Positions 3,210 to 64,000 of a DNA stretch of 64,000 bases are shown here, piece after piece. The notes beneath the pieces are model-generated. The model searched no databases. It saw only the letters and a program-made list of their open reading frames with translations, and was not told the origin of the DNA. Position 1 is the first letter of the stretch; every line of letters begins with the position of its first letter. Source of the DNA: a phage. Location of the stretch: the sequence record NC_102531.1. One strand, 5' to 3'. A program made the position numbers and the translations under genes.

Positions 3210-4121
3210 TTATTTCCCGTTAACTTTGTTGTAGTTTCCCTGCTCAGAGGGGACTATGGTAGAAGGTCTTCCATATTCCTGATAATACCAATCCGCAGCC
3301 GATTTGGTAACACCGTTTTCATCTGTCCACATCATAGATTTGTATGGCTGCCACTCCTCTGCAGCGTTTGTGGATGCAGTGTCTGCGAATGCTCCTGTGT
3401 CCCTCTTGTTACCCACGTTACTGCCATTCTTACAGTCGTTGACAGCACCTTTTTGCTGGGTTTTGCCTACTTTCTTAGGATTGCTGTATACAGTTGCATT
3501 AACAACCTTATTCAAGTAGAATGTGCGGAACTCTGTAAGCTCTACATCAAACACCATTGCAGCGCCTTCACCAACAGACTTGTTGGCAGAAAGACTGGTT
3601 ATGATGTAGTTCTCAAGAAGTCTCTCCTCGGTAACCAAAGAAACCAACTGTCGCTTATTGATAATCTCAGTCAAAGCCTCCAATGCAGCGCCTGGTCGCA
3701 TAGATGCTGCAGGGTTTTTAGAGTCAGTATTCCTATCAATGTAGTTTTGCTCATAAATTATGTGTGGAGATGTATTTACCCTACCAGTAAAAGAAAATAC
3801 ACCATCTTTAATTACAGCGTGGTCTGACAGGGTAGATTTATCTTCCACCGCAAACCCAGTCTTATCAACAGAATGTTTGAAAGAGTAATTCTCAACCTGA
3901 TCGAAGATAATGGCAAGATCGTTAGTAAAGTTTTTACCCTTCATCTCCGTATTGCGACCGCCATAGTTAAGACCGCTGACAAACATAGTGTACTTTACAT
4001 CGCTTTCAGTTTGCTGCTCTGCCTTTTCAGCCTTTGGAGATTTAACCTCTTGAGGCTTGTACAGGTCTTTTTCATCAACTATATTGCTTGGCATAACCTC
4101 TCCAGGACACTCCGATACCAT
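3210..4121 (-). CDS. hypothetical tail protein (immediately downstream of tape measure)
   Basis: 303-aa ORF; synteny only. Confidence 0.3.
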   Translation of the reverse strand: MVSECPGEVMPSNIVDEKDLYKPQEVKSPKAEKAEQQTESDVKYTMFVSGLNYGGRNTEMKGKNFTNDLAIIFDQVENYSFKHSVDKTGFAVEDKSTLSDHAVIKDGVFSFTGRVNTSPHIIYEQNYIDRNTDSKNPAASMRPGAALEALTEIINKRQLVSLVTEERLLENYIITSLSANKSVGEGAAMVFDVELTEFRTFYLNKVVNATVYSNPKKVGKTQQKGAVNDCKNGSNVGNKRDTGAFADTASTNAAEEWQPYKSMMWTDENGVTKSAADWYYQEYGRPSTIVPSEQGNYNKVNGK

Positions 4122-17105: not shown

Positions 17106-18194
17106 TTAGATAAAACGCTTGAACATAGAAGGTGATGAGATTGATGGAATCACACAAGGAAGTGCTACCTCCTCTTTCTCCAGGAAATTAATCGCAGAAG
17201 CTACACAGTCAGCCCAGTCGTCTTTTCTGTTAAATGTTGATCTTTCCCCGTTGAATTTTTCAAGTTCGGTCAGAAATGCTTCCAGAGTATCAGGATGGAA
17301 ACTGGATTTTACAATCCTTACCATTCCTTGTTGGGCAAGATTGGCAAAAGGTGAGAACCTTGTCAGTTTAGACTTGTTGGAAGGCATTGGGTCTTCTTCA
17401 ACCCTAAACCCTTCGGCAAGCAAGGATCTGGAGGAGGTTAAGAACTCACTCTTACCTGCCTGACCGGGGTCCACAGAGAATACGATTATACAATCATCAC
17501 CATCAAACTGCGCCTGTTTCCTGATGATCACATCTCGTTCACCAGCCTTTTTACAGAACTTACCTTCCAGACCTGTGGAATACCTCCCGTCATCCACGTT
17601 CTCAGGACAATAATCCCCGGACAGGTAATAAAAGCCGTCGCTATCTTTACTTACCTTAACACTGGCGGTAAAGTCAGGAAATTTATTACCGGAAGTTCTC
17701 TCGGTTCCTGCTTTATCCCATGCCCTGCAAGACACTGATCCAAGGGGTACTCTATCGGCATCACGAAGGAAAGATCTTTGAAAATAGTTTGCACCCTCAG
17801 GCTTTGCAAACCAGTTACCATGGAGAAGCTGAGCTTTTTCAAGCTCGGGCAGACCTTCAAGGAAAGCAAGGTATTCTGGGTTGTCTCTCAAGCAGACAGG
17901 ATTATCGAATATTGTTGCGCCTATAAACGAGAATGACAACGGTCTCGGCTTGATCTCTACACCCAGTCCGTTAACAGTGGTGTATTTCTCTATCAACTCT
18001 TCTTTAGAGTCTCCCCAGATAAATTCACCGTCGCGTCGGATAAAATATCTTTTCTTACCGCATTTCTCCGGATCTGGATACCCCTCATCGTCCAACCACC
18101 ACCTAACCAGTTTGGCAAGCATGTGTTCTGAATCGGGGTTACAGCTGATAACCATTCTTGATGGATACTTTGACTGAGATCGCAGACGAGACAT
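17106..18194 (-). CDS. terL: terminase large subunit, exon 2 (nuclease domain)
   Basis: 362-aa ORF; frame is open only about 12 codons upstream of the first Met, so it cannot be contiguous with the ATPase exon; follows the Walker A/B exon across an intron. Confidence 0.75.
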   Translation of the reverse strand: MSRLRSQSKYPSRMVISCNPDSEHMLAKLVRWWLDDEGYPDPEKCGKKRYFIRRDGEFIWGDSKEELIEKYTTVNGLGVEIKPRPLSFSFIGATIFDNPVCLRDNPEYLAFLEGLPELEKAQLLHGNWFAKPEGANYFQRSFLRDADRVPLGSVSCRAWDKAGTERTSGNKFPDFTASVKVSKDSDGFYYLSGDYCPENVDDGRYSTGLEGKFCKKAGERDVIIRKQAQFDGDDCIIVFSVDPGQAGKSEFLTSSRSLLAEGFRVEEDPMPSNKSKLTRFSPFANLAQQGMVRIVKSSFHPDTLEAFLTELEKFNGERSTFNRKDDWADCVASAINFLEKEEVALPCVIPSISSPSMFKRFI

Positions 18195-18209
18195 CAGGTA
18201 GTCTATCTG

Positions 18210-19109
18210 CTCCCATTCGAATTGTGTCGTTTATGTTCGGGCAAGGTCGCTAGTCTTGCCCCGCCATTTTCAGGCAGCTGCATGTCTCCATGCAGACCAG
18301 ACTATATCTTATGAATGTGTAAATACTCTGCCGCTCTAAGAATAGTTTCCTCATCTTCTTGGAAGAAACCTAAAGCTCTGTTGCATTTATCACAAAGCAA
18401 CCCTCTTACAGCACCAGTTTTATGGTCATGATCAACACAAAAGAAATCTCTGTACCCTTGCATCCTATACTCATTAAGAGATATTCTACAAATGGCACAC
18501 TTATGATCTTGATCTGAGAGTAGACGATAGTATTCATCTTTTGTTATGTGAAATTTCTTCTCAATCTGATAAAACTTTTCACACATCTTACACCTGTTCG
18601 TAACCAGATATACTTTACCATAGTCACGTTTTGTGTAAAAACTATCAGCGAGCATACTTTCATGACAAGATTTGCATTCAAAAAGTTCACCTTTCTTCAG
18701 CAAGTCTTGAATAAACAATGCTGCGTCATCTCTCTTAACCATATTTTTATTTTTACGAGATCCACCCTTCCTGTAGTACATATAGCATTCCTTGCATGTA
18801 CCTGAGTATCCATCCTTGCTCTTAGATGATAAAAAGAAATCATCAATAGGCAGAACTCTTTGGCAATCCATACATTTTTAGTATTACACATTCACCCTCC
18901 CGTTTCGAATCGCTTGATTCTACGTCTTTCGACTAGTCGTTGAACGTTCATCCTCTCGGATGCTTCGCTGCGGATTATCTAAATTAACACACTGTTACCC
19001 TACCTTCGATCTCTCTTCGAAGCCTCTATTATGTTACCATAACAGGTTGGTGGTGTCAATAATAAAGATTTCCCCGCAATTAGGGAGGTTTTACGAGAGC
19101 TACAAATTA
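18210..19109 (-). mobile_element. group I intron interrupting terL (boundaries approximate)
   Basis: About 900 nt between the Walker B exon (ends ...MVCFDEG then stop) and exon 2. The 5' part contains strings resembling group I core elements (TAATTGCGGGGAAAT, AATCCGCAGC, GTTCAACGACTAGTCG); an HNH ORF lies in the 3' part. Confidence 0.6.
18302..18871 (-). CDS. intron-encoded HNH / endonuclease VII-family homing endonuclease
   Basis: 189 aa with CAICRISL...FCVDHDHKTGAVRGLLCDKCNRALG, the Endo VII-type Cys-DHDH-GxVRGLLC-CN signature; sits inside the terL intron. Confidence 0.7.
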   Translation of the reverse strand: MDCQRVLPIDDFFLSSKSKDGYSGTCKECYMYYRKGGSRKNKNMVKRDDAALFIQDLLKKGELFECKSCHESMLADSFYTKRDYGKVYLVTNRCKMCEKFYQIEKKFHITKDEYYRLLSDQDHKCAICRISLNEYRMQGYRDFFCVDHDHKTGAVRGLLCDKCNRALGFFQEDEETILRAAEYLHIHKI

Positions 19110-19535
19110 ACCCTCATCGAAGCAAACCATGGTGTACTCAAGACCCTGATGGTTAAGCTTATCTTGCACATACTCCATATGGCAGTATTTTACAACAGCT
19201 CCCTTTTTGCTTCTATCCCACTTACCAGTGTTCGGATCAAACCGTGGAAAAATGAACTTATGATCCTTCTCTCTGAACTTTGGCTTAATGTTTTCAGGCA
19301 GATCACTATAAATAGCTACTGCTTTAGGCCATAGTCCACCCTCACCTTCCAACTGTGGGGTTGTTCTTCGGAACATAACCACAGAGCTGTGTGGGTCATC
19401 AATAATTTTAAGTGGCATCAACTGCAAGAGGAACGACTTGCCAGACCCTGCGGCACCGCCGATTACCAAGATATCTGCATCGTTTTCGAGGATCATCTTC
19501 TGCTTTTCAGAACACGGTCCGTAAATCTTAGACAT
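19110..19535 (-). CDS. terL: terminase large subunit, exon 1 (ATPase domain)
   Basis: Walker A GGAAGSGKS and Walker B-like ...MVCFDE at the exon end; in-frame stop lies immediately inside the intron. Confidence 0.8.
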
Positions 19536-20638: not shown

Positions 20639-20715
20639 TGGTCTCCACGGAGTGATTCGAACACTCGACCTCCTGATCCCAAATCAGGCGCTCTACCAAG
20701 CTGAGCTACGCGGAG
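20639..20715 (-). tRNA. tRNA-Pro (anticodon UGG)
   Basis: Hand-folded cloverleaf: C1-G72 acceptor, D-arm GCTC/GAGC, anticodon loop TTTGGGA, T-loop TTCGAAT, encoded CCA. Confidence 0.8.
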
Positions 20716-20726
20716 TATTTACTATT

Positions 20727-20801
20727 TGGTGGCCCTGGGTGGAATTGAACCACCGTCTGGCGATTATGAGTCGCTTGCTTGAACCTTCCAGCTACAGGGC
20801 C
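20727..20801 (-). tRNA. tRNA-Met or tRNA-Ile2 (anticodon CAU)
   Basis: Hand-folded: acceptor GGCCCTG/CAGGGCC, anticodon loop CTCATAA, T-arm GGTGG-TTCAATT-CCACC, encoded CCA. Confidence 0.7.
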
Positions 20802-20802
20802 T

Positions 20803-20878
20803 TGGTGCTGATGGCAGGACTTGAACCTACAACCTATTGATTACAAATCAATTGCACTACCGATTGTGCTACATCAGC
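20803..20878 (-). tRNA. tRNA-Thr (anticodon UGU)
   Basis: Hand-folded: acceptor GCTGATG/CATCAGC, D-arm GCAC/GTGC, anticodon loop TTTGTAA, T-loop TTCAAGT, encoded CCA. Confidence 0.8.
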
Positions 20879-20883
20879 AAAAA

Positions 20884-20982
20884 GGTGCTAGGTGATGGAA
20901 TCGAACCACCTATGTATTCAACGACTACCTCGTCTATTTTCAGGATTAAAAATCCTCGCCCTTGCCAAAGGGCTTACCTAGC
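20884..20982 (-). tRNA. atypical tRNA-like gene (99 nt; anticodon loop UUUUUAA, putative UUU; roughly 30-nt variable region)
   Basis: Perfect 7-bp acceptor GCTAGGT/ACCTAGC, D-arm GCCC/GGGC, T-arm GGTGG-TTCGATT-CCATC, anticodon hairpin AGGA-TTTTTAA-TCCT; the region between anticodon and T-arm is far longer than in canonical type I or II tRNAs. Confidence 0.4.
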
Positions 20983-21080
20983 TCAGTATGTTGACCATGT
21001 TGCTAGTCGGCGATGACGACTGTAACATTTGATAATCCGGTTCTGCTTCCGGCTTTCGCTTAATTACAAGGTCAACAATG

Positions 21081-21171
21081 TGGCGGAGAGTAATGGAATC
21101 GAACCATCATCGAGTCATACCCAACGGGACGGTTTTCAAGACCGCTTGAGCACCATTGCTCCCTACCCTCC
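21081..21171 (-). tRNA. tRNA-Ser (anticodon UGA)
   Basis: Hand-folded type II tRNA: anticodon loop CTTGAAA, long variable arm, T-arm GATGG-TTCGATT-CCATT, encoded CCA. Confidence 0.75.
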
Positions 21172-21285
21172 TTTATAAATTATACTGATAATGACACTGA
21201 TTTTCGAGCAGTTAGTGACTAGTATAAACGACGATAAATATCAATGCCATTATCTGTATTATTTATGCATCTAAAAATATAAATT

Positions 21286-21372
21286 TGGTGGGGAGTGGTG
21301 GAGTCGAACCACCCGAGTCGCAATGACAATAGATTTACAGTCTACACCGCTACCTCTACGGGATAACTCCCC
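21286..21372 (-). tRNA. tRNA-Tyr (anticodon GUA)
   Basis: Hand-folded type II tRNA: acceptor GGGGAGT/ACTCCCC, anticodon stem-loop GTAGA-CTGTAAA-TCTAT, long variable arm, T-arm GGTGG-TTCGACT-CCACC, CCA. Confidence 0.7.
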
Positions 21373-21376
21373 AATT

Positions 21377-21451
21377 TGGCACCCCGTACTGGACTCGAAC
21401 CAGTGTCAACGGCTTAGAAGGCCGCTGCTTTATCCACTAAGCTAACAGGGC
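21377..21451 (-). tRNA. tRNA-Arg (anticodon UCU)
   Basis: Hand-folded: D-arm GCTT-AGTGGATA-AAGC, anticodon stem-loop GCGGC-CTTCTAA-GCCGT, T-arm CTGG-TTCGAGT-CCAG, CCA; two G-U pairs in acceptor stem. Confidence 0.7.
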
Positions 21452-59945: not shown

Positions 59946-60209
59946 ATGAACATCCTGATGTGGGTTGTAGCAGTGGCGTTTGTTGCATGTTTTTGCTGCT
60001 GGGTTGCGGTGAGGATTTCTATAGCTACCCTTCGGAAGTTGGGGTTCTCAGAGTGGGATATTAATATCCTTTCTTTTCGCAATGAAACAATCTCAGCCGC
60101 CCTGCTCTGTAAGAAATTCAAGTGGGAACCTTGCGAGGTCATGAACTATCTAAGAACAGGAGATATCCCTGAAAGATTTAAAAAAGTTCTTGACGGCAAG
60201 GATAAATGA
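59946..60209 (+). CDS. small membrane protein
   Basis: N-terminal hydrophobic helix MWVVAVAFVACFCCWVAV. Confidence 0.4.
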   Translation: MNILMWVVAVAFVACFCCWVAVRISIATLRKLGFSEWDINILSFRNETISAALLCKKFKWEPCEVMNYLRTGDIPERFKKVLDGKDK

Positions 60210-60364
60210 CAGTATAGTGACTAACAAGAGGTGAGGAGTGACTGATTTTACTGAAGCTTTAATGATGGCCTTGTCTGTTTTAGTGCTATCGGTGTGTTTT
60301 GGGGCGTTATTCACATCTCTGGTTAAAGTTTTACATACAGTATTATTACCCAAGGAGCGCAGTA

Positions 60365-60619
60365 ATGACAAAGATTGACTTAAATGCTGGAGACCATGTT
60401 GTTGTCAAATGCATCGGAGATTATCTTGGATTCACAATCGGCAATACTTACGAGGCGGTAGTGGCGAAGGTTTACCATGATAAAGTCCTCAGTCTTGTAT
60501 TTGACTGCGATGATGATGATGGGGATGACCGATACGTCTGTGAGGTACTGGCACGAGACGATAGTGAAGACCAGAAATTCCTGGTTATTGAACTGAATGG
60601 TATTTTTGTAGAACGTTAA
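60365..60619 (+). CDS. hypothetical small acidic protein
   Basis: AAGGAG RBS before ATG 60365. Confidence 0.45.
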   Translation: MTKIDLNAGDHVVVKCIGDYLGFTIGNTYEAVVAKVYHDKVLSLVFDCDDDDGDDRYVCEVLARDDSEDQKFLVIELNGIFVER

Positions 60620-60647
60620 TTTAAAACAACATAAGGAGACTCCTACT

Positions 60648-60953
60648 ATGGCTAAATCTAAAGTTGAACTGTTCACCTCTCTTCCTTCTGACACTGCAGA
60701 ACGTGATCGCCTTCGCAAAACAATCGAAGAACTGGTGGAACTCCAGCTTCAGATTAAAGATCTGAAAGATGCCATCAAGGATATCATTCTTGTTGAGAAG
60801 CAGGATCATCTGTATTCTCCTAAATTCATCAAATCTCTGGTGGCTACCGAGTTCGATATTCGCTATGAGGCTGAAAAACGTCGAGCTAAAATCGAAGAAG
60901 AGGTTGAGCACATGTCTGAGGCAGACATTCTGTTCAAACGCTCTGTAGAATAA
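60648..60953 (+). CDS. hypothetical protein
   Basis: AAGGAGAC RBS; followed by a terminator. Confidence 0.5.
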   Translation: MAKSKVELFTSLPSDTAERDRLRKTIEELVELQLQIKDLKDAIKDIILVEKQDHLYSPKFIKSLVATEFDIRYEAEKRRAKIEEEVEHMSEADILFKRSVE

Positions 60954-60957
60954 TGAC

Positions 60958-60985
60958 AAAGAGGGGCCCAAGCCCCTCTTTTACT
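60958..60985 (+). terminator. rho-independent terminator candidate
   Basis: AGAGGGGC-ccaa-GCCCCTCT followed by TTTACT. Confidence 0.55.
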
Positions 60986-61005
60986 ATCCATGAAGGAGAT
61001 TTGAG

Positions 61006-61332
61006 ATGGGTATACCGATTACTGTAAAAGAACTAAATGAACGTGATGCAGGCGGTCTATGGCCTGCACGAAAAATCCGCTGCGTCTATATGAAAGAGAA
61101 TCTTGAACATCTTGATCAACAGATCAAGGTCGGTGATATTTTCGAGGTCTTCTATTCCAATCGTCGCAACTGGGAAACCATTCAGCCTTCTGGTTTTGTT
61201 CTTGCCAAACTTGACACTGGAGAAGTGATTATCCCTGGGTTGGATATTGTCTTCGAAATTATCCAGGAGTGGGATCCGGATAAGATTAGATACGAAGAAT
61301 TATTCGGTAAAGGTATTATCAAACCTGTGTGA
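61006..61332 (+). CDS. hypothetical protein
   Basis: GAAGGAG RBS, 108 aa. Confidence 0.5.
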   Translation: MGIPITVKELNERDAGGLWPARKIRCVYMKENLEHLDQQIKVGDIFEVFYSNRRNWETIQPSGFVLAKLDTGEVIIPGLDIVFEIIQEWDPDKIRYEELFGKGIIKPV

Positions 61333-61340
61333 GGTGGATT

Positions 61341-61622
61341 ATGTCTACAAAGGCGGCTAAATACTCCTACATGCCATCAACCTCTGCAGAGGTAGACTTT
61401 AGTTTCGATGTGTTCCCACTATTTGAGGTGGTTCTGGCATACCCAACAATACTATCCACTCCTGAATCACTTGTGCCTGTTAAGTTGCAGAACGCTATGC
61501 ATTCTATGCACTACAACAATAAATGTAGGCACAGATGGTGTCAGGACGAGGAAAAAGATCTGGACAGTTTGAGAGATTTTGACAATCACCTTTTGACACC
61601 TTTCAGCTACTCCAAACCTTGA
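61341..61622 (+). CDS. hypothetical protein
   Basis: GGTGG RBS before ATG 61341. Confidence 0.45.
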   Translation: MSTKAAKYSYMPSTSAEVDFSFDVFPLFEVVLAYPTILSTPESLVPVKLQNAMHSMHYNNKCRHRWCQDEEKDLDSLRDFDNHLLTPFSYSKP

Positions 61623-61663
61623 TAAGCCCTCATGGGTATAGCAAAATATCAAATTTAAGACAC

Positions 61664-61692
61664 CTAGGACGCTCTATGGCGTCCTTTTCTTT
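61664..61692 (+). terminator. rho-independent terminator candidate
   Basis: AGGACGC-tctatg-GCGTCCT followed by TTTCTTT. Confidence 0.6.
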
Positions 61693-61854
61693 ATCTGGTG
61701 CACGATTGCATACCTTGGACAGATAATCTCGTTACAGAGCGTTTAAGGACGGTCTATAAACAAATCTCTCTTTCGAGCGTAGCGAGAACGCACGTCCGTT
61801 TTGGCCCAAATCACCATACGCTCGGATTTTAACCAAACCCTCGCGGCGTTTCTG

Positions 61855-61883
61855 TTGACACATTGCCGCTCCAGTGATAATAT
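61855..61883 (+). promoter_or_regulatory. sigma70-like promoter
   Basis: TTGACA - 17 nt - TAATAT followed by GGAGAAT RBS. Confidence 0.55.
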
Positions 61884-61903
61884 CCACACATCGTTTGGAG
61901 AAT

Positions 61904-62005
61904 ATGGAATACACAATGAGAACATTGTCCGAAGTTTTAGTGGTGATCCTGATGATCATTACGTCCATAGCGGCTGTTGCCGGAATACTCACGGGTGGAA
62001 CATGA
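61904..62005 (+). CDS. tiny hydrophobic peptide (33 aa, single TM helix)
   Basis: MEYTMRTLSEVLVVILMIITSIAAVAGILTGGT behind promoter and RBS; stop overlaps the next start. Confidence 0.4.
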   Translation: MEYTMRTLSEVLVVILMIITSIAAVAGILTGGT

Positions 62006-62217
62006 CTACCACACATGCGTCTGAAGAGACATCCGAAGGAGTGACCATATGTTGCCCATTGGCTGAGCCAGTGAAAGAGGAAAACTTCGATTCTGAAGAT
62101 TCTCCATCTTCGCTCCAGGTAGATCCTGAGGCTGATGACCTGACGTGGGAAGACATCGTAGATATCTGGTTCTCTATTATGCCTGAGCACGAAGAGTTCA
62201 GAGGTGGTAGACTATGA
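62002..62217 (+). CDS. small highly acidic protein
   Basis: MTTTHASEETSEGVTICCPLAEPVKEENFDSEDSPSSLQVDPEADDLTWEDIV...; GGGTGG RBS; preferred over the antisense ORF 61732..62190. Confidence 0.45.
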   Translation: MTTTHASEETSEGVTICCPLAEPVKEENFDSEDSPSSLQVDPEADDLTWEDIVDIWFSIMPEHEEFRGGRL

Positions 62218-62337
62218 AGCACCGAGCCCACACAGGTTCCTCATGCTAAAGCATGGCCTGAAGAGGCAAACGTGCATAATTCCAGCGTGTTGTAACGTGT
62301 AAACCCTGTTCACACTCTCATTTCCAGAGGAGATTCA

Positions 62338-62553
62338 ATGAAGATAGAAATATTTGGTGGAGCTGACAACACTCGTGGCCTGATTTACCTTGAATTCGAT
62401 GAATCATACCTGCCAGAGGTGTTAAATATAGACTCTGTTGCTGAGGCTTTGGGAGTAAACCCTAAAGAACTCCACTCTTGTGCTGAGATCGATGGTTGGG
62501 AGGAGACCATGAACATTGATTTCAGTGAAGTAGAGGATGAACCGCTGGACTGA
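62338..62553 (+). CDS. small acidic protein (MKIEIFG, paralog-like)
   Basis: AGAGGAG RBS, 71 aa. Confidence 0.45.
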   Translation: MKIEIFGGADNTRGLIYLEFDESYLPEVLNIDSVAEALGVNPKELHSCAEIDGWEETMNIDFSEVEDEPLD

Positions 62554-62679
62554 CACACAATTAGCTGCCTGGCTAAAGTGCTGGAGCACCTATAACACAT
62601 CTTTCAACTAAATTTCCTACCACCACAATCACTTACCTCCCACACATGACTGTTTGCTTGTTTAGTGAGCAGTCATGCC

Positions 62680-62707
62680 TTGACATTCTTGCCTATCCTG
62701 ATAAAAT
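62680..62707 (+). promoter_or_regulatory. sigma70-like promoter with no downstream ORF
   Basis: TTGACA - 16 nt - TAAAAT, preceded by inverted repeat CATGACTG...CAGTCATG; downstream 300 nt lacks a convincing ORF. Confidence 0.45.
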
Positions 62708-64000
62708 TAAGTTCTTCTCTTTTCTTTTACCGAGTAATTCGGGTTTTCTGTTCTCTTCGGTTTGAAGGGGTATGGAGATACACCTGAGTGAACAGGGTGA
62801 ACAACCGAACATTTGGCTATGGCATTAGCATGGCGAAGCGGACGGGTGACGAAAGAGGGGCCGGAGGACACCAGTCACTGCCATATGATATATGGGTGAT
62901 AACCTGAAGAGTCTGAATAAGTGTTTAAGTACCAGTCAGAGGAAAAGGTGAATGGTAGCCGAAGGGGGAGGGGGGTTTCTTGTATCTTTAATTTGTATAT
63001 TATGTATACACTTGTAAACCAATCTCATCTGAATCTGTTTACCACACAAAGCGGATAGAGACAAATATTGCCTATTAAACTTGAATTATTTATAGAAAAT
63101 ACCACAACACCACTTAAGTCTTTGATTTTACACACAAATCCTACAAATATCCTACCTTCATATTTAACATACCTGTAACATATTCCATACTCTACCTGCC
63201 TGATCAATTTCCCCAACTACATACCCATATTTTCCCTGTCTGTACTACCCATGCCCCGCCGGGAGTCCCGTCATATCTGGCTTTCCAGCAAATATCACAC
63301 CCACAAATATCATTGCCTGAAGAGGGTTTCATCCCATAATACCTGCCTTGCCTGAAGAGCGCTTCATACACCACGTAAATTTTTTAATTGACCCCTCCCC
63401 GCCGCCGGAGAGGTTGGCTTTTCCCACACAGACCTGAAGAGTCAGCCAGAAATATCTGAACAGGTCCAGTTCTGCCACGATTTTGACCTGACATACAGGA
63501 GCGCTGCCCTGTCAGGAGCCGTAGCGACTGGAGTGCTGCCAGGCGGACGGAATGGGAATACTTCTCATTCTTATAATAATTCTCAAATATCGAGGCAGTG
63601 AGGCAAATTAATAGGCCAGGCCGTTCACACAGTGGCACAACATTTGCAACCTATCTTGGGCGGGTGAATGAGAATACCTATCATTGTGAGAACTGTTATC
63701 ATTACGGGCAATTTAACATAATACCCATTATGCGCACCACTGGCGATACATACAGGGATTGATAACATGGGTTACTGTTTACGCACATAACAATTATATT
63801 TCTTACTATTTGTGTGGGATATAGTTAGCAGCCGATAGATTAGATATTAACCTGCAGACTTCTGACCGTCCAGACGTCTAAACGCCCACACACCAAGGAT
63901 TATACATACACTCCTGAATGTAAACAGGGCCGCAAAAATGCTACCATACAAGCTTGTAAATTTTCCATGCAGCACTTGACAAAGAGGAGAAAAACTTGTC

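Follow-up and report, generated by a model that had tools for sequence, protein, structure and literature searches.

The right genome end of an rV5-like Vequintavirus: a known terminal repeat, a putative packaging module and a conserved promoter unit that is probably non-coding

The DNA studied here, referred to as the window, is a stretch of 64,000 nucleotides (nt) from the phage sequence record NC_102531.1; all coordinates below follow window numbering unless another record is named. Database matches assign the window to a Vequintavirus, an rV5-like myophage of Escherichia coli: comparison of its final 1.45 kilobases (kb) with phage records gave 121 matches at 95-97% identity, all of them to the genus Vequintavirus. 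Our in silico analysis of these final 1.45 kb leads us to conclude, with considerable confidence, that the right end of the genome is built from three parts: a terminal repeat, a pre-repeat module of the packaging type, and a conserved, promoter-driven non-coding unit. As judged from the list of open reading frames (ORFs) and the annotated relatives, positions 62554-64000 form the initial 1.45 kb of an ORF-free gap of about 2.4 kb. Since the final rightward gene of these relatives stops at 62553 and the next genes are found about 2.4 kb further on and on the opposite strand, the three parts reside within an ORF-free gap between convergent gene blocks. A sensitive blastn search with the gap DNA returned no match outside Vequintavirus, the identity within the genus being 90-97%; the cross-genus signal obtained from the gap DNA consisted of short motifs only.

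The terminal repeat and the physical right end

The last 459 base pairs (bp) of the window correspond to the terminal repeat of closely related phages, and a motif marks each of its two ends (a slash denotes the presumed cut).

63542-64000, no strand assigned: 459-bp direct terminal repeat, right-end copy, with the physical right terminus at 64000 (comparison with EdH4, LL12, HdK5, ECP2309 and YN3)
63535-63550, plus strand: left boundary (cut-site) motif GCTGCCA/GGCGGACGG, the repeat starting at 63542 (alignment with EdH4 and LL12; related motifs in KPP-1, PVP-SE1, Av-05, A73 and CR9)
63975-64000, plus strand: right-end motif CTTGACAAAGAGGAGAAAAACTTGTC/, composed of TTGACA, a purine run and TTGTC (EdH4 is co-terminal; related ends in KPP-1, PVP-SE1 and A73)

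In LL12, the terminal repeat was set at 104966-105424 by PhageTerm from virion reads, and it was placed between convergent transcripts in a non-coding gap (PMC6658697). This LL12 interval is the exact alignment partner of window positions 63542-64000; therefore, the window closes with the right-end copy of the repeat, which takes up its last 459 bp. The alignment puts the repeat boundary at 63541/63542 and the physical right end of the genome at 64000. The record of EdH4 (MK327930) carries an identical 459-bp sequence at its two ends (1-459 and 135573-136031), which is 97.8% identical to 63542-64000; EdH4 base 1 equals position 63542, and EdH4 and the window finish on the same base. The first-pass annotation, which had been made from the letters of the window without database searches, had suspected a genome terminus or terminal-repeat boundary in this region and had proposed a comparison with the other genome end. 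We made this comparison in relatives and found that the records of HdK5, ECP2309 and YN3 likewise begin and end with this 459-bp sequence, so that the suspected boundary agrees to the base with the repeat of these three phages, EdH4 and LL12; in addition, the ECP2303 record ends with the repeat, and that of Pr121LW begins with it. It had been missed that the repeat itself makes up the last 459 bp and that the gap runs for about 1 kb past the repeat on the other genome end.

Three papers give this repeat independently at 458-459 bp. Next to the LL12 study (PMC6658697), these report a terminal redundancy of 458 bp for EdH4 and HdK5 (PMC6563267), and 459-bp terminal repeats with a single fixed packaging start for Gotham (PMC7471380). 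LL12, EdH4, HdK5 and Gotham share this sequence with the window at 95-98% identity, and their repeats agree with it in length, base-exact boundaries and position in the gap; nothing material sets them apart. The terminus and its 459-bp repeat are thus known biology for Vequintavirus, of which the published notes provide coordinates only and leave the flanking motifs undescribed. The virion DNA would be a linear, non-permuted molecule of the kind made by short-repeat (T7-type) packaging.

We aligned the gap in 11 genomes and the promoter block described below in 18, and used five genomes over about 50 kb for the calculation of percentiles. Among the 11 genomes, the repeat is conserved to about 94-96%. 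Indel-rich, highly variable zones lie directly outside both of its boundaries, one at 63380-63541 and the other in the first ~350 bp past the left-end repeat (naswa L002 4457-4800). None of the records was at least 99% identical over the repeat, compared with 61 of 117 over the promoter block, and a search with an exact 62-mer from the repeat retrieved one IMG/VR contig, a relative with 95.6% identity. The left-end unique DNA that follows the repeat, and which is located outside the window, is likewise ORF-free for about 1 kb in naswa (L002 4457-5500); TGACA and GTTTACA repeats are dense in it, and it also contains two copies of GCCATGCCATTCGTTTGCAT and a long perfect hairpin.

The pre-repeat module and its counterparts in other Vequintavirinae

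The DNA directly upstream of the repeat, and the repeat itself, contain a set of short elements that recur throughout the subfamily.

63040-63541, plus strand: pre-repeat module common to the subfamily, with a C/A-rich stretch, CCTGAAGAG and AAATATC repeats and a GC hairpin (six-genus motif comparison)
63390-63415, plus strand: GC hairpin, part of the pre-repeat module
63585-63591, plus strand: AAATATC copy within the repeat, 43 nt from its left end (same motif inside the repeat in six genera)
63711-63737, plus strand: 27-nt box ATTTAACATAATACCCATTATGCGCAC with the inverted repeat CATAAT-N4-ATTATG, inside the repeat and kept across the subfamily (search with a 51-nt query)

The C/A bias of positions 63040-63330 had been noticed at first reading and is borne out by our counts: C and A account for 60.5% and G for 10.7%, which ranks the stretch in the top 0.1% of same-size windows in the 64 kb. 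The indel-rich zone at 63380-63541 closes the module. The motif CCTGAAGAG, of which at least four copies had been reported, occurs at 62903, 63316, 63351 and 63433, near the places first given for it; with a fifth copy at 62257, there are five copies between 62257 and 63441 (~1.2 kb). The whole window contains eight copies, all of them on the plus strand, compared with an expectation of 0.63, and none of 100 shuffles reached eight. AAATATC repeats are present at 63145, 63290, 63305 and 63450.

We compared six genera of the Vequintavirinae: Vequintavirus and the genera represented by KPP-1 (Mydovirus), A73 (Septuagintavirus), PVP-SE1 (Seunavirus), Av-05 (Avunavirus) and CR9 (Certrevirus). The five other genera possess the same anatomy, i.e., convergent blocks and a gap of 1.8-2.5 kb with the repeat in its middle; in KPP-1, a repeat of 514 bp was defined by PhageTerm. 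Overall, the gap DNA cannot be aligned between genera, but short motifs recur in it and their order is kept. Upstream of the repeat, each of the six genera carries 2-7 copies of CT[GA]AAG on the plus strand and none on the minus strand (P <= 0.05, dinucleotide shuffles); in the 988 nt upstream of the repeat of the window, five plus-strand and no minus-strand copies compare with a mean of 0.47 and a maximum of three in shuffles. The segment 63431-63447 matches KPP-1 at 16 of 17 positions. Given this enrichment, orientation and order in six genera, the motif singled out at first reading is therefore a real, orientation-specific and subfamily-wide feature.

The other elements recur in a similar manner. 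In all six genera, AAATATC is found upstream of the repeat and once more, on the plus strand only, 34-46 nt past the repeat start (known or inferred), and a C-rich GC hairpin (ACCCCTCCCCGCC...GGAG) recurs across genera. The left boundary motif reads GCTGCCA/GGCGGAC or GCTAGACGGAC; related motifs are located at the PhageTerm boundary of KPP-1 and at the equivalent place in PVP-SE1, Av-05, A73 and CR9. About 170-225 nt inside the repeat lies the 27-nt box, in its cross-genus form ATTTAACATAATACNNNTTATRCGCAC. A 51-nt query containing the box matched 224 records, and the box could be aligned in the six genera; its matches (81-93% over 27-37 nt) fall into unannotated DNA of Avunavirus, Seunavirus, Certrevirus, Mydovirus, Septuagintavirus and others. 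The right end consists across genera of TTGACA, a purine run, and then TTGTC or TTGTGT; the PhageTerm-defined repeat of KPP-1 ends with ...CTTGACAAGGAGAGAGAATTGTGT, and PVP-SE1 and A73 have related sequences at the equivalent position. KPP-1 and PVP-SE1 also possess a homologous sigma-70-like site with an extended -10 region and an overlapping CTGAAG copy, directed at the repeat.

One might regard the gap as a mere buffer or termination zone between convergent operons, of which the repeats, hairpins and promoter-like site would be by-products. Its position between convergent blocks, the several hairpins in it and the loss of individual repeat copies in some genomes would all suit such a zone. 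We nevertheless consider this explanation quite improbable, since the motifs keep their order, orientation and spacing in six genera despite otherwise unalignable DNA, the cut sites coincide with conserved motifs, and the conservation of 62645-62975 (see below) equals that of transfer RNA (tRNA) genes.

Comparison with T7

T7 and the window have in common a short, non-permuted terminal repeat and one-orientation arrays of a 7-9-nt motif beside it. In the T7 record, the 160-bp repeat is flanked by and contains the motif CCTAAAG, which is found on one strand only, with 11 copies at the left end and five at the right; the copy nearest to the right repeat, CACCTAAAGAGGGTC, resembles GCCTGAAGAGGGTT of the window. 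The T7 promoter phiOR reads into the right repeat from a position about 550 bp upstream of it, and the promoter of the window is likewise situated upstream and directed at the repeat. The T7 promoter is served by the phage's own RNA polymerase, whereas that of the window is of the host sigma-70 type. The two systems also differ in the length of the repeat (459 bp here versus 160 bp in T7) and in the large terminase, which in the window belongs to Pfam Terminase_6N/6C (Terminase_6, a T4-like type) and is split by an intron. The T7 packaging signal has two parts, pacB and pacC (PMC9860248).

Because of the motif conservation in six genera and the analogy to T7, we infer that 63040-64000 is best interpreted as a packaging site. 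The pre-repeat module (63040-63541), together with the sites inside the repeat, would form a cis-acting region through which concatemer junctions are recognized and processed or cut. The 27-nt box is a candidate protein-binding (pac-like) site. The terminase, probably its small subunit, would bind the elements of this region, and the DNA would be cut at GCTGCCA/GGCGGAC and ...TTGTC/; the one repeat copy present at each concatemer junction would become two through strand-displacement synthesis, a mechanism proposed for T7.

The large terminase gene occupies 17109-19535 on the minus strand, with a Terminase_6N part at 19110-19535 and a 6N/6C part at 17109-18194; an ORF with an Endonuclease_7 domain (18305-18871) lies between the two parts. 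This split agrees with the intron reported for the rV5 terminase (rV5 genome paper). A near copy of the left-boundary sequence GCCAGGCGGACGG (63538-63550) occurs as GCGAAGCGGACGG at 62833-62845, within the ultraconserved block described below, and the repeats of T7 and KPP-1 also have CGGAC close to their left end; these likenesses may be coincidence.

A conserved promoter unit upstream of the module

The third part of the right end precedes the pre-repeat module and consists of a hairpin, a promoter and a block of exceptional conservation, followed by an AT-rich spacer.

62645-62677, plus strand: 14-bp hairpin CATGACTGTTTGCT / AGTGAGCAGTCATG with a 5-nt loop, ending 2 nt before the -35 hexamer (RNA fold; invariant in 18 genomes)
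62680-62707, plus strand: near-consensus sigma-70 promoter with extended -10 region, directed toward the terminal repeat (TTGACA at 62680-62685, 16 nt, TAAAAT at 62702-62707, TG at 62699-62700)
62714-62975, plus strand: ultraconserved, Vequintavirus-specific block, predicted to be transcribed and non-coding (11- and 18-genome alignments, G content)
62976-63140, no strand assigned: AT-rich, indel-prone spacer (71% AT over 62985-63140; indels or replacement in Mangalyan and A147)

The TTGACA-16-TAAAAT promoter recognized in the first-pass annotation scores 11 of 12, carries the TG of an extended -10 region, and is the top site in 61500-64000. The two hexamers and the TG do not vary among 18 genomes, whereas the spacer has three substitutions, the pattern expected of a working promoter; transcription is predicted to start near 62714. 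An 8-bp inverted repeat had been described as flanking this promoter. Its arms exist, as the outer part of the 14-bp hairpin at 62645-62677, but they lie wholly upstream of the -35 hexamer and do not flank the promoter. The hairpin (-19.1 kcal/mol, z = -4.83, none of 200 shuffles as good) is likely the 3' hairpin of upstream operon transcripts or a site for a regulator.

Pairwise identity over 62645-62975 amounts to 98.5-99.6% per 100 nt, compared with 88-99% (mostly 92-98%) in the flanking genes, and exceeds that of nearly all neighbouring bins of this size. The region ranks in the 99th percentile of 400-nt windows (five genomes, ~50 kb), level with the tRNA cluster; the windows that outrank it are nearly all in this cluster, plus one coding segment. 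Conservation begins at the upstream hairpin and stops sharply after the sequence G5AG6, and three genomes are fully divergent from the next base on; the length of the G run differs between genomes. Only two IMG/VR contigs were matched by a 20-mer from the conserved block. From these alignments, 62645-62975 is evidently under very strong purifying selection.

Within 62714-62975, the 5' leader is rich in pyrimidines and contains a small hairpin and a U-run (62730-62752); it is followed by G-rich DNA and by the G5AG6 end (62964-62975). The purine-rich stretch mentioned at first reading corresponds to 62760-62985; purines make up 64.6% of it and G 35%, and no window of equal size in the 64 kb is richer in G. 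The next 156 nt (62985-63140) are in the top 0.2% of the window for AT. The near-consensus host sigma-70 promoter would fire toward the repeat and produce a non-coding, G-rich transcript of about 260 nt ending in G5AG6. We consider it most likely that the product of the block is an early non-coding RNA; alternatively, transcription itself or an R-loop would serve replication priming or junction processing.

Database searches assigned this putative RNA to no known class. Rfam 15 gave no hit at E <= 1 in 60000-64000, the best scores in 62600-63050 being 10-13 bits against gathering values of 45-109, and searches for tRNA and transfer-messenger RNA found none in the conserved block. A host origin was rejected, as 62580-62995 matched none of 5,426 E. 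coli genomes, and the literature searched contained no Vequintavirus transcriptome. With respect to the predicted fold, six of the nine variable sites are unpaired, two are wobble-compatible and one breaks a pair, in an alignment of low variation (98-100% identity); the unpaired sites include three variants in the loop of the hairpin CCATAT-GAT-ATATGG. A hammerhead ribozyme was considered, as CUGAAGA fits the CUGANGA core, and was rejected: there was no Rfam hammerhead match even at E <= 10, in the 62903 copy, inspected by eye, stem II has a G-G mismatch at its base and a canonical stem III is missing, and the other copies lack GAAA.

The gap had also been described as devoid of a convincing ORF, and this holds. 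The longest ORF in 62554-64000 encodes 84 amino acids (aa) on the minus strand (63384-63638) and crosses an indel-rich zone, in which 32 nt are missing from relatives; the gap carries no annotation in most related records. Small proteins might still have been missed, either a 39-aa ORF at 62788-62907, with GGAG about 9 nt ahead of its GTG at 62788, or a 44-49-aa minus-strand ORF; small ORFs are indeed annotated in the records of Mangalyan, Alma and APCEc02, the last of which labels the minus-strand ORF 'structural protein'. We regard this as very unlikely. No ORF matched a PHROG family; of the eight variable sites within the 62788 ORF, read in its frame, seven change the amino acid, and three genomes have lost the ATG at 62772 that could serve as an alternative start; the ORF labelled 'structural protein' crosses the indel zone, its sequence and length vary between genomes, and the APCEc02 paper contains no proteomics. 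In the RefSeq record of APCEc02 (L012), this 44-aa ORF occupies 3813-3947 on the minus strand, corresponding to about 63366-63500 of the window; it is not conserved, and the annotation is probably wrong.

A further explanation concerns replication: the promoter block and the AT-rich DNA behind it could represent a transcription-primed origin, at which the G-rich RNA made by host RNA polymerase would remain hybridised as an R-loop, with the G5AG6 tract as an aid, and would prime a T7-like replisome beside DNA that melts easily. Such a design resembles ColE1 RNA II, T4 oriF/oriG, the T7 primary origin and mitochondrial LSP-CSBII. With ColE1 RNA II, T4 oriF/oriG and LSP-CSBII, the block would share the succession of a promoter, a G-rich non-template strand (here ending in G5AG6) and AT-rich DNA; it is, in contrast, confined to one genus. 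The strength of the promoter, the sharp end of conservation at the G tract, and a composition in which the highest non-template G content of the window gives way to DNA in the top 0.2% for AT would all fit an origin. The cumulative GC skew of the window, moreover, has its maximum at about 63000, so that a turning point is located here; in the same region, the rV5 genome paper draws a 'non-coding' box without ORFs and reports a GC-skew change (rV5 104425-105475). According to the same paper, rV5 possesses a DNA polymerase of family A and a primase-helicase resembling gp4. We nonetheless hold an origin to be rather unlikely, since the block is missing in five other genera of the Vequintavirinae with the same replication genes, the rV5 authors ascribe the skew change to the direction of transcription, and the G tract has just two runs. 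The cumulative GC-skew minimum of the window, at about 25000, marks a minus-to-plus switch that probably reflects a divergent promoter region between two gene blocks.

Returning to the three-part reading of the right end, several points weigh against it. For the repeat, the left-end copy falls outside the window, in which we found no second copy, and the duplication in this isolate is deduced from close relatives. For the packaging module, the short repeats, the box and the GC hairpin are linked to terminase through conservation and analogy only; copies of CCTGAAGAG are individually mutated in FV3, an IMG/VR contig and Mangalyan at about the background rate; and the T7 arrays lie on both sides of and inside the repeat, whereas those of the Vequintavirinae are present on the upstream side only, the repeat and the left-end unique DNA of all six genera containing 0-1 plus-strand copies of CT[GA]AAG and hence no two-sided array of the T7 type. 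For the promoter unit, none was detected in A73, KPP-1, PVP-SE1, Av-05 or CR9 (in the A73 gap, a terminator leads directly into the C/A-rich stretch); as these five genera manage without it, the unit is therefore not essential to the shared packaging mechanism. The fold energy of the block is not better than that of shuffles (z = -1.07), no compensatory changes were seen and one substitution disrupts a predicted pair in an alignment with little variation, and no terminator was found after the G tract. With no family match, a fold not beyond shuffles and no covariation, the RNA hypothesis is therefore plausible but unproven, and 62714-62975 may plausibly be regarded as the template of a non-coding RNA. 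As a tentative proposal with a low chance of being correct, 62645-62975 could be a new phage element, whose G-rich RNA, made by host RNA polymerase, would form an R-loop or hybrid G-quadruplex and thereby serve in cis to prime replication or to mark the nearby concatemer junction for terminase, or which specifies a new host-acting early non-coding RNA.

Surroundings of the gap and other features of the window

The gap follows directly upon the end of the rightward gene block.

62338-62553, plus strand: last gene of the rightward block, hypothetical, 71 aa, marking the start of the gap (ORF list; coding sequence in magaca, naswa, Alma, EdH4, rV5 and FV3)

Upstream of this gene, 61630-62338 is thinly and inconsistently annotated: magaca and naswa show nothing there, and Alma, rV5 and JeffSchatz differ in the small ORFs they list. 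This segment holds CTGAAGAG copies at 62021 and 62258 and, at 61855-61883, a second good promoter-like site (10 of 12, with TG). The gene-poor zone may thus start about 900 bp ahead of the region first noted.

At 20639-21451, the window carries a cluster of seven tRNA genes, inside which ARAGORN calls a tRNA-like gene that is 99 nt long and has the four-base anticodon atcc (20884-20982). Among the database matches, 17-19 GenBank 'Campylobacter phage' records are 90-97% identical to this E. coli Vequintavirus; nineteen of them are among the 121 matches to the final 1.45 kb and carry the Vequintavirus taxonomy line. Those that were fetched bear the UNVERIFIED flag. These are probably mislabelled or contaminant phages.

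Significance

The exact ends fix the correct start and orientation for the genome and explain the two-fold coverage seen in assemblies, and the small 'hypothetical proteins' annotated in the gap in some records are probably spurious. In the literature searched, we found no publication on the subfamily-wide motif architecture around the repeat or on the genus-specific, ultraconserved promoter unit. To our knowledge, the mechanistic understanding of short-repeat packaging derives almost entirely from T7 and T3. Our six-genus comparison provides a testable parts list for this mode of packaging, composed of boundary cut-site motifs, the 27-nt box and oriented upstream repeats, and it is relevant to a large group of therapeutic phages of E. 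coli, Salmonella, Klebsiella and Cronobacter. The ultraconserved promoter unit, in turn, could bring to light a phage non-coding RNA not previously known or a cis element that depends on transcription. If its G-rich RNA does act in cis, it would be the bacterial-virus counterpart of the mitochondrial LSP-CSBII switch; if it acts on the host instead, the block would encode a new, abundant early non-coding RNA.

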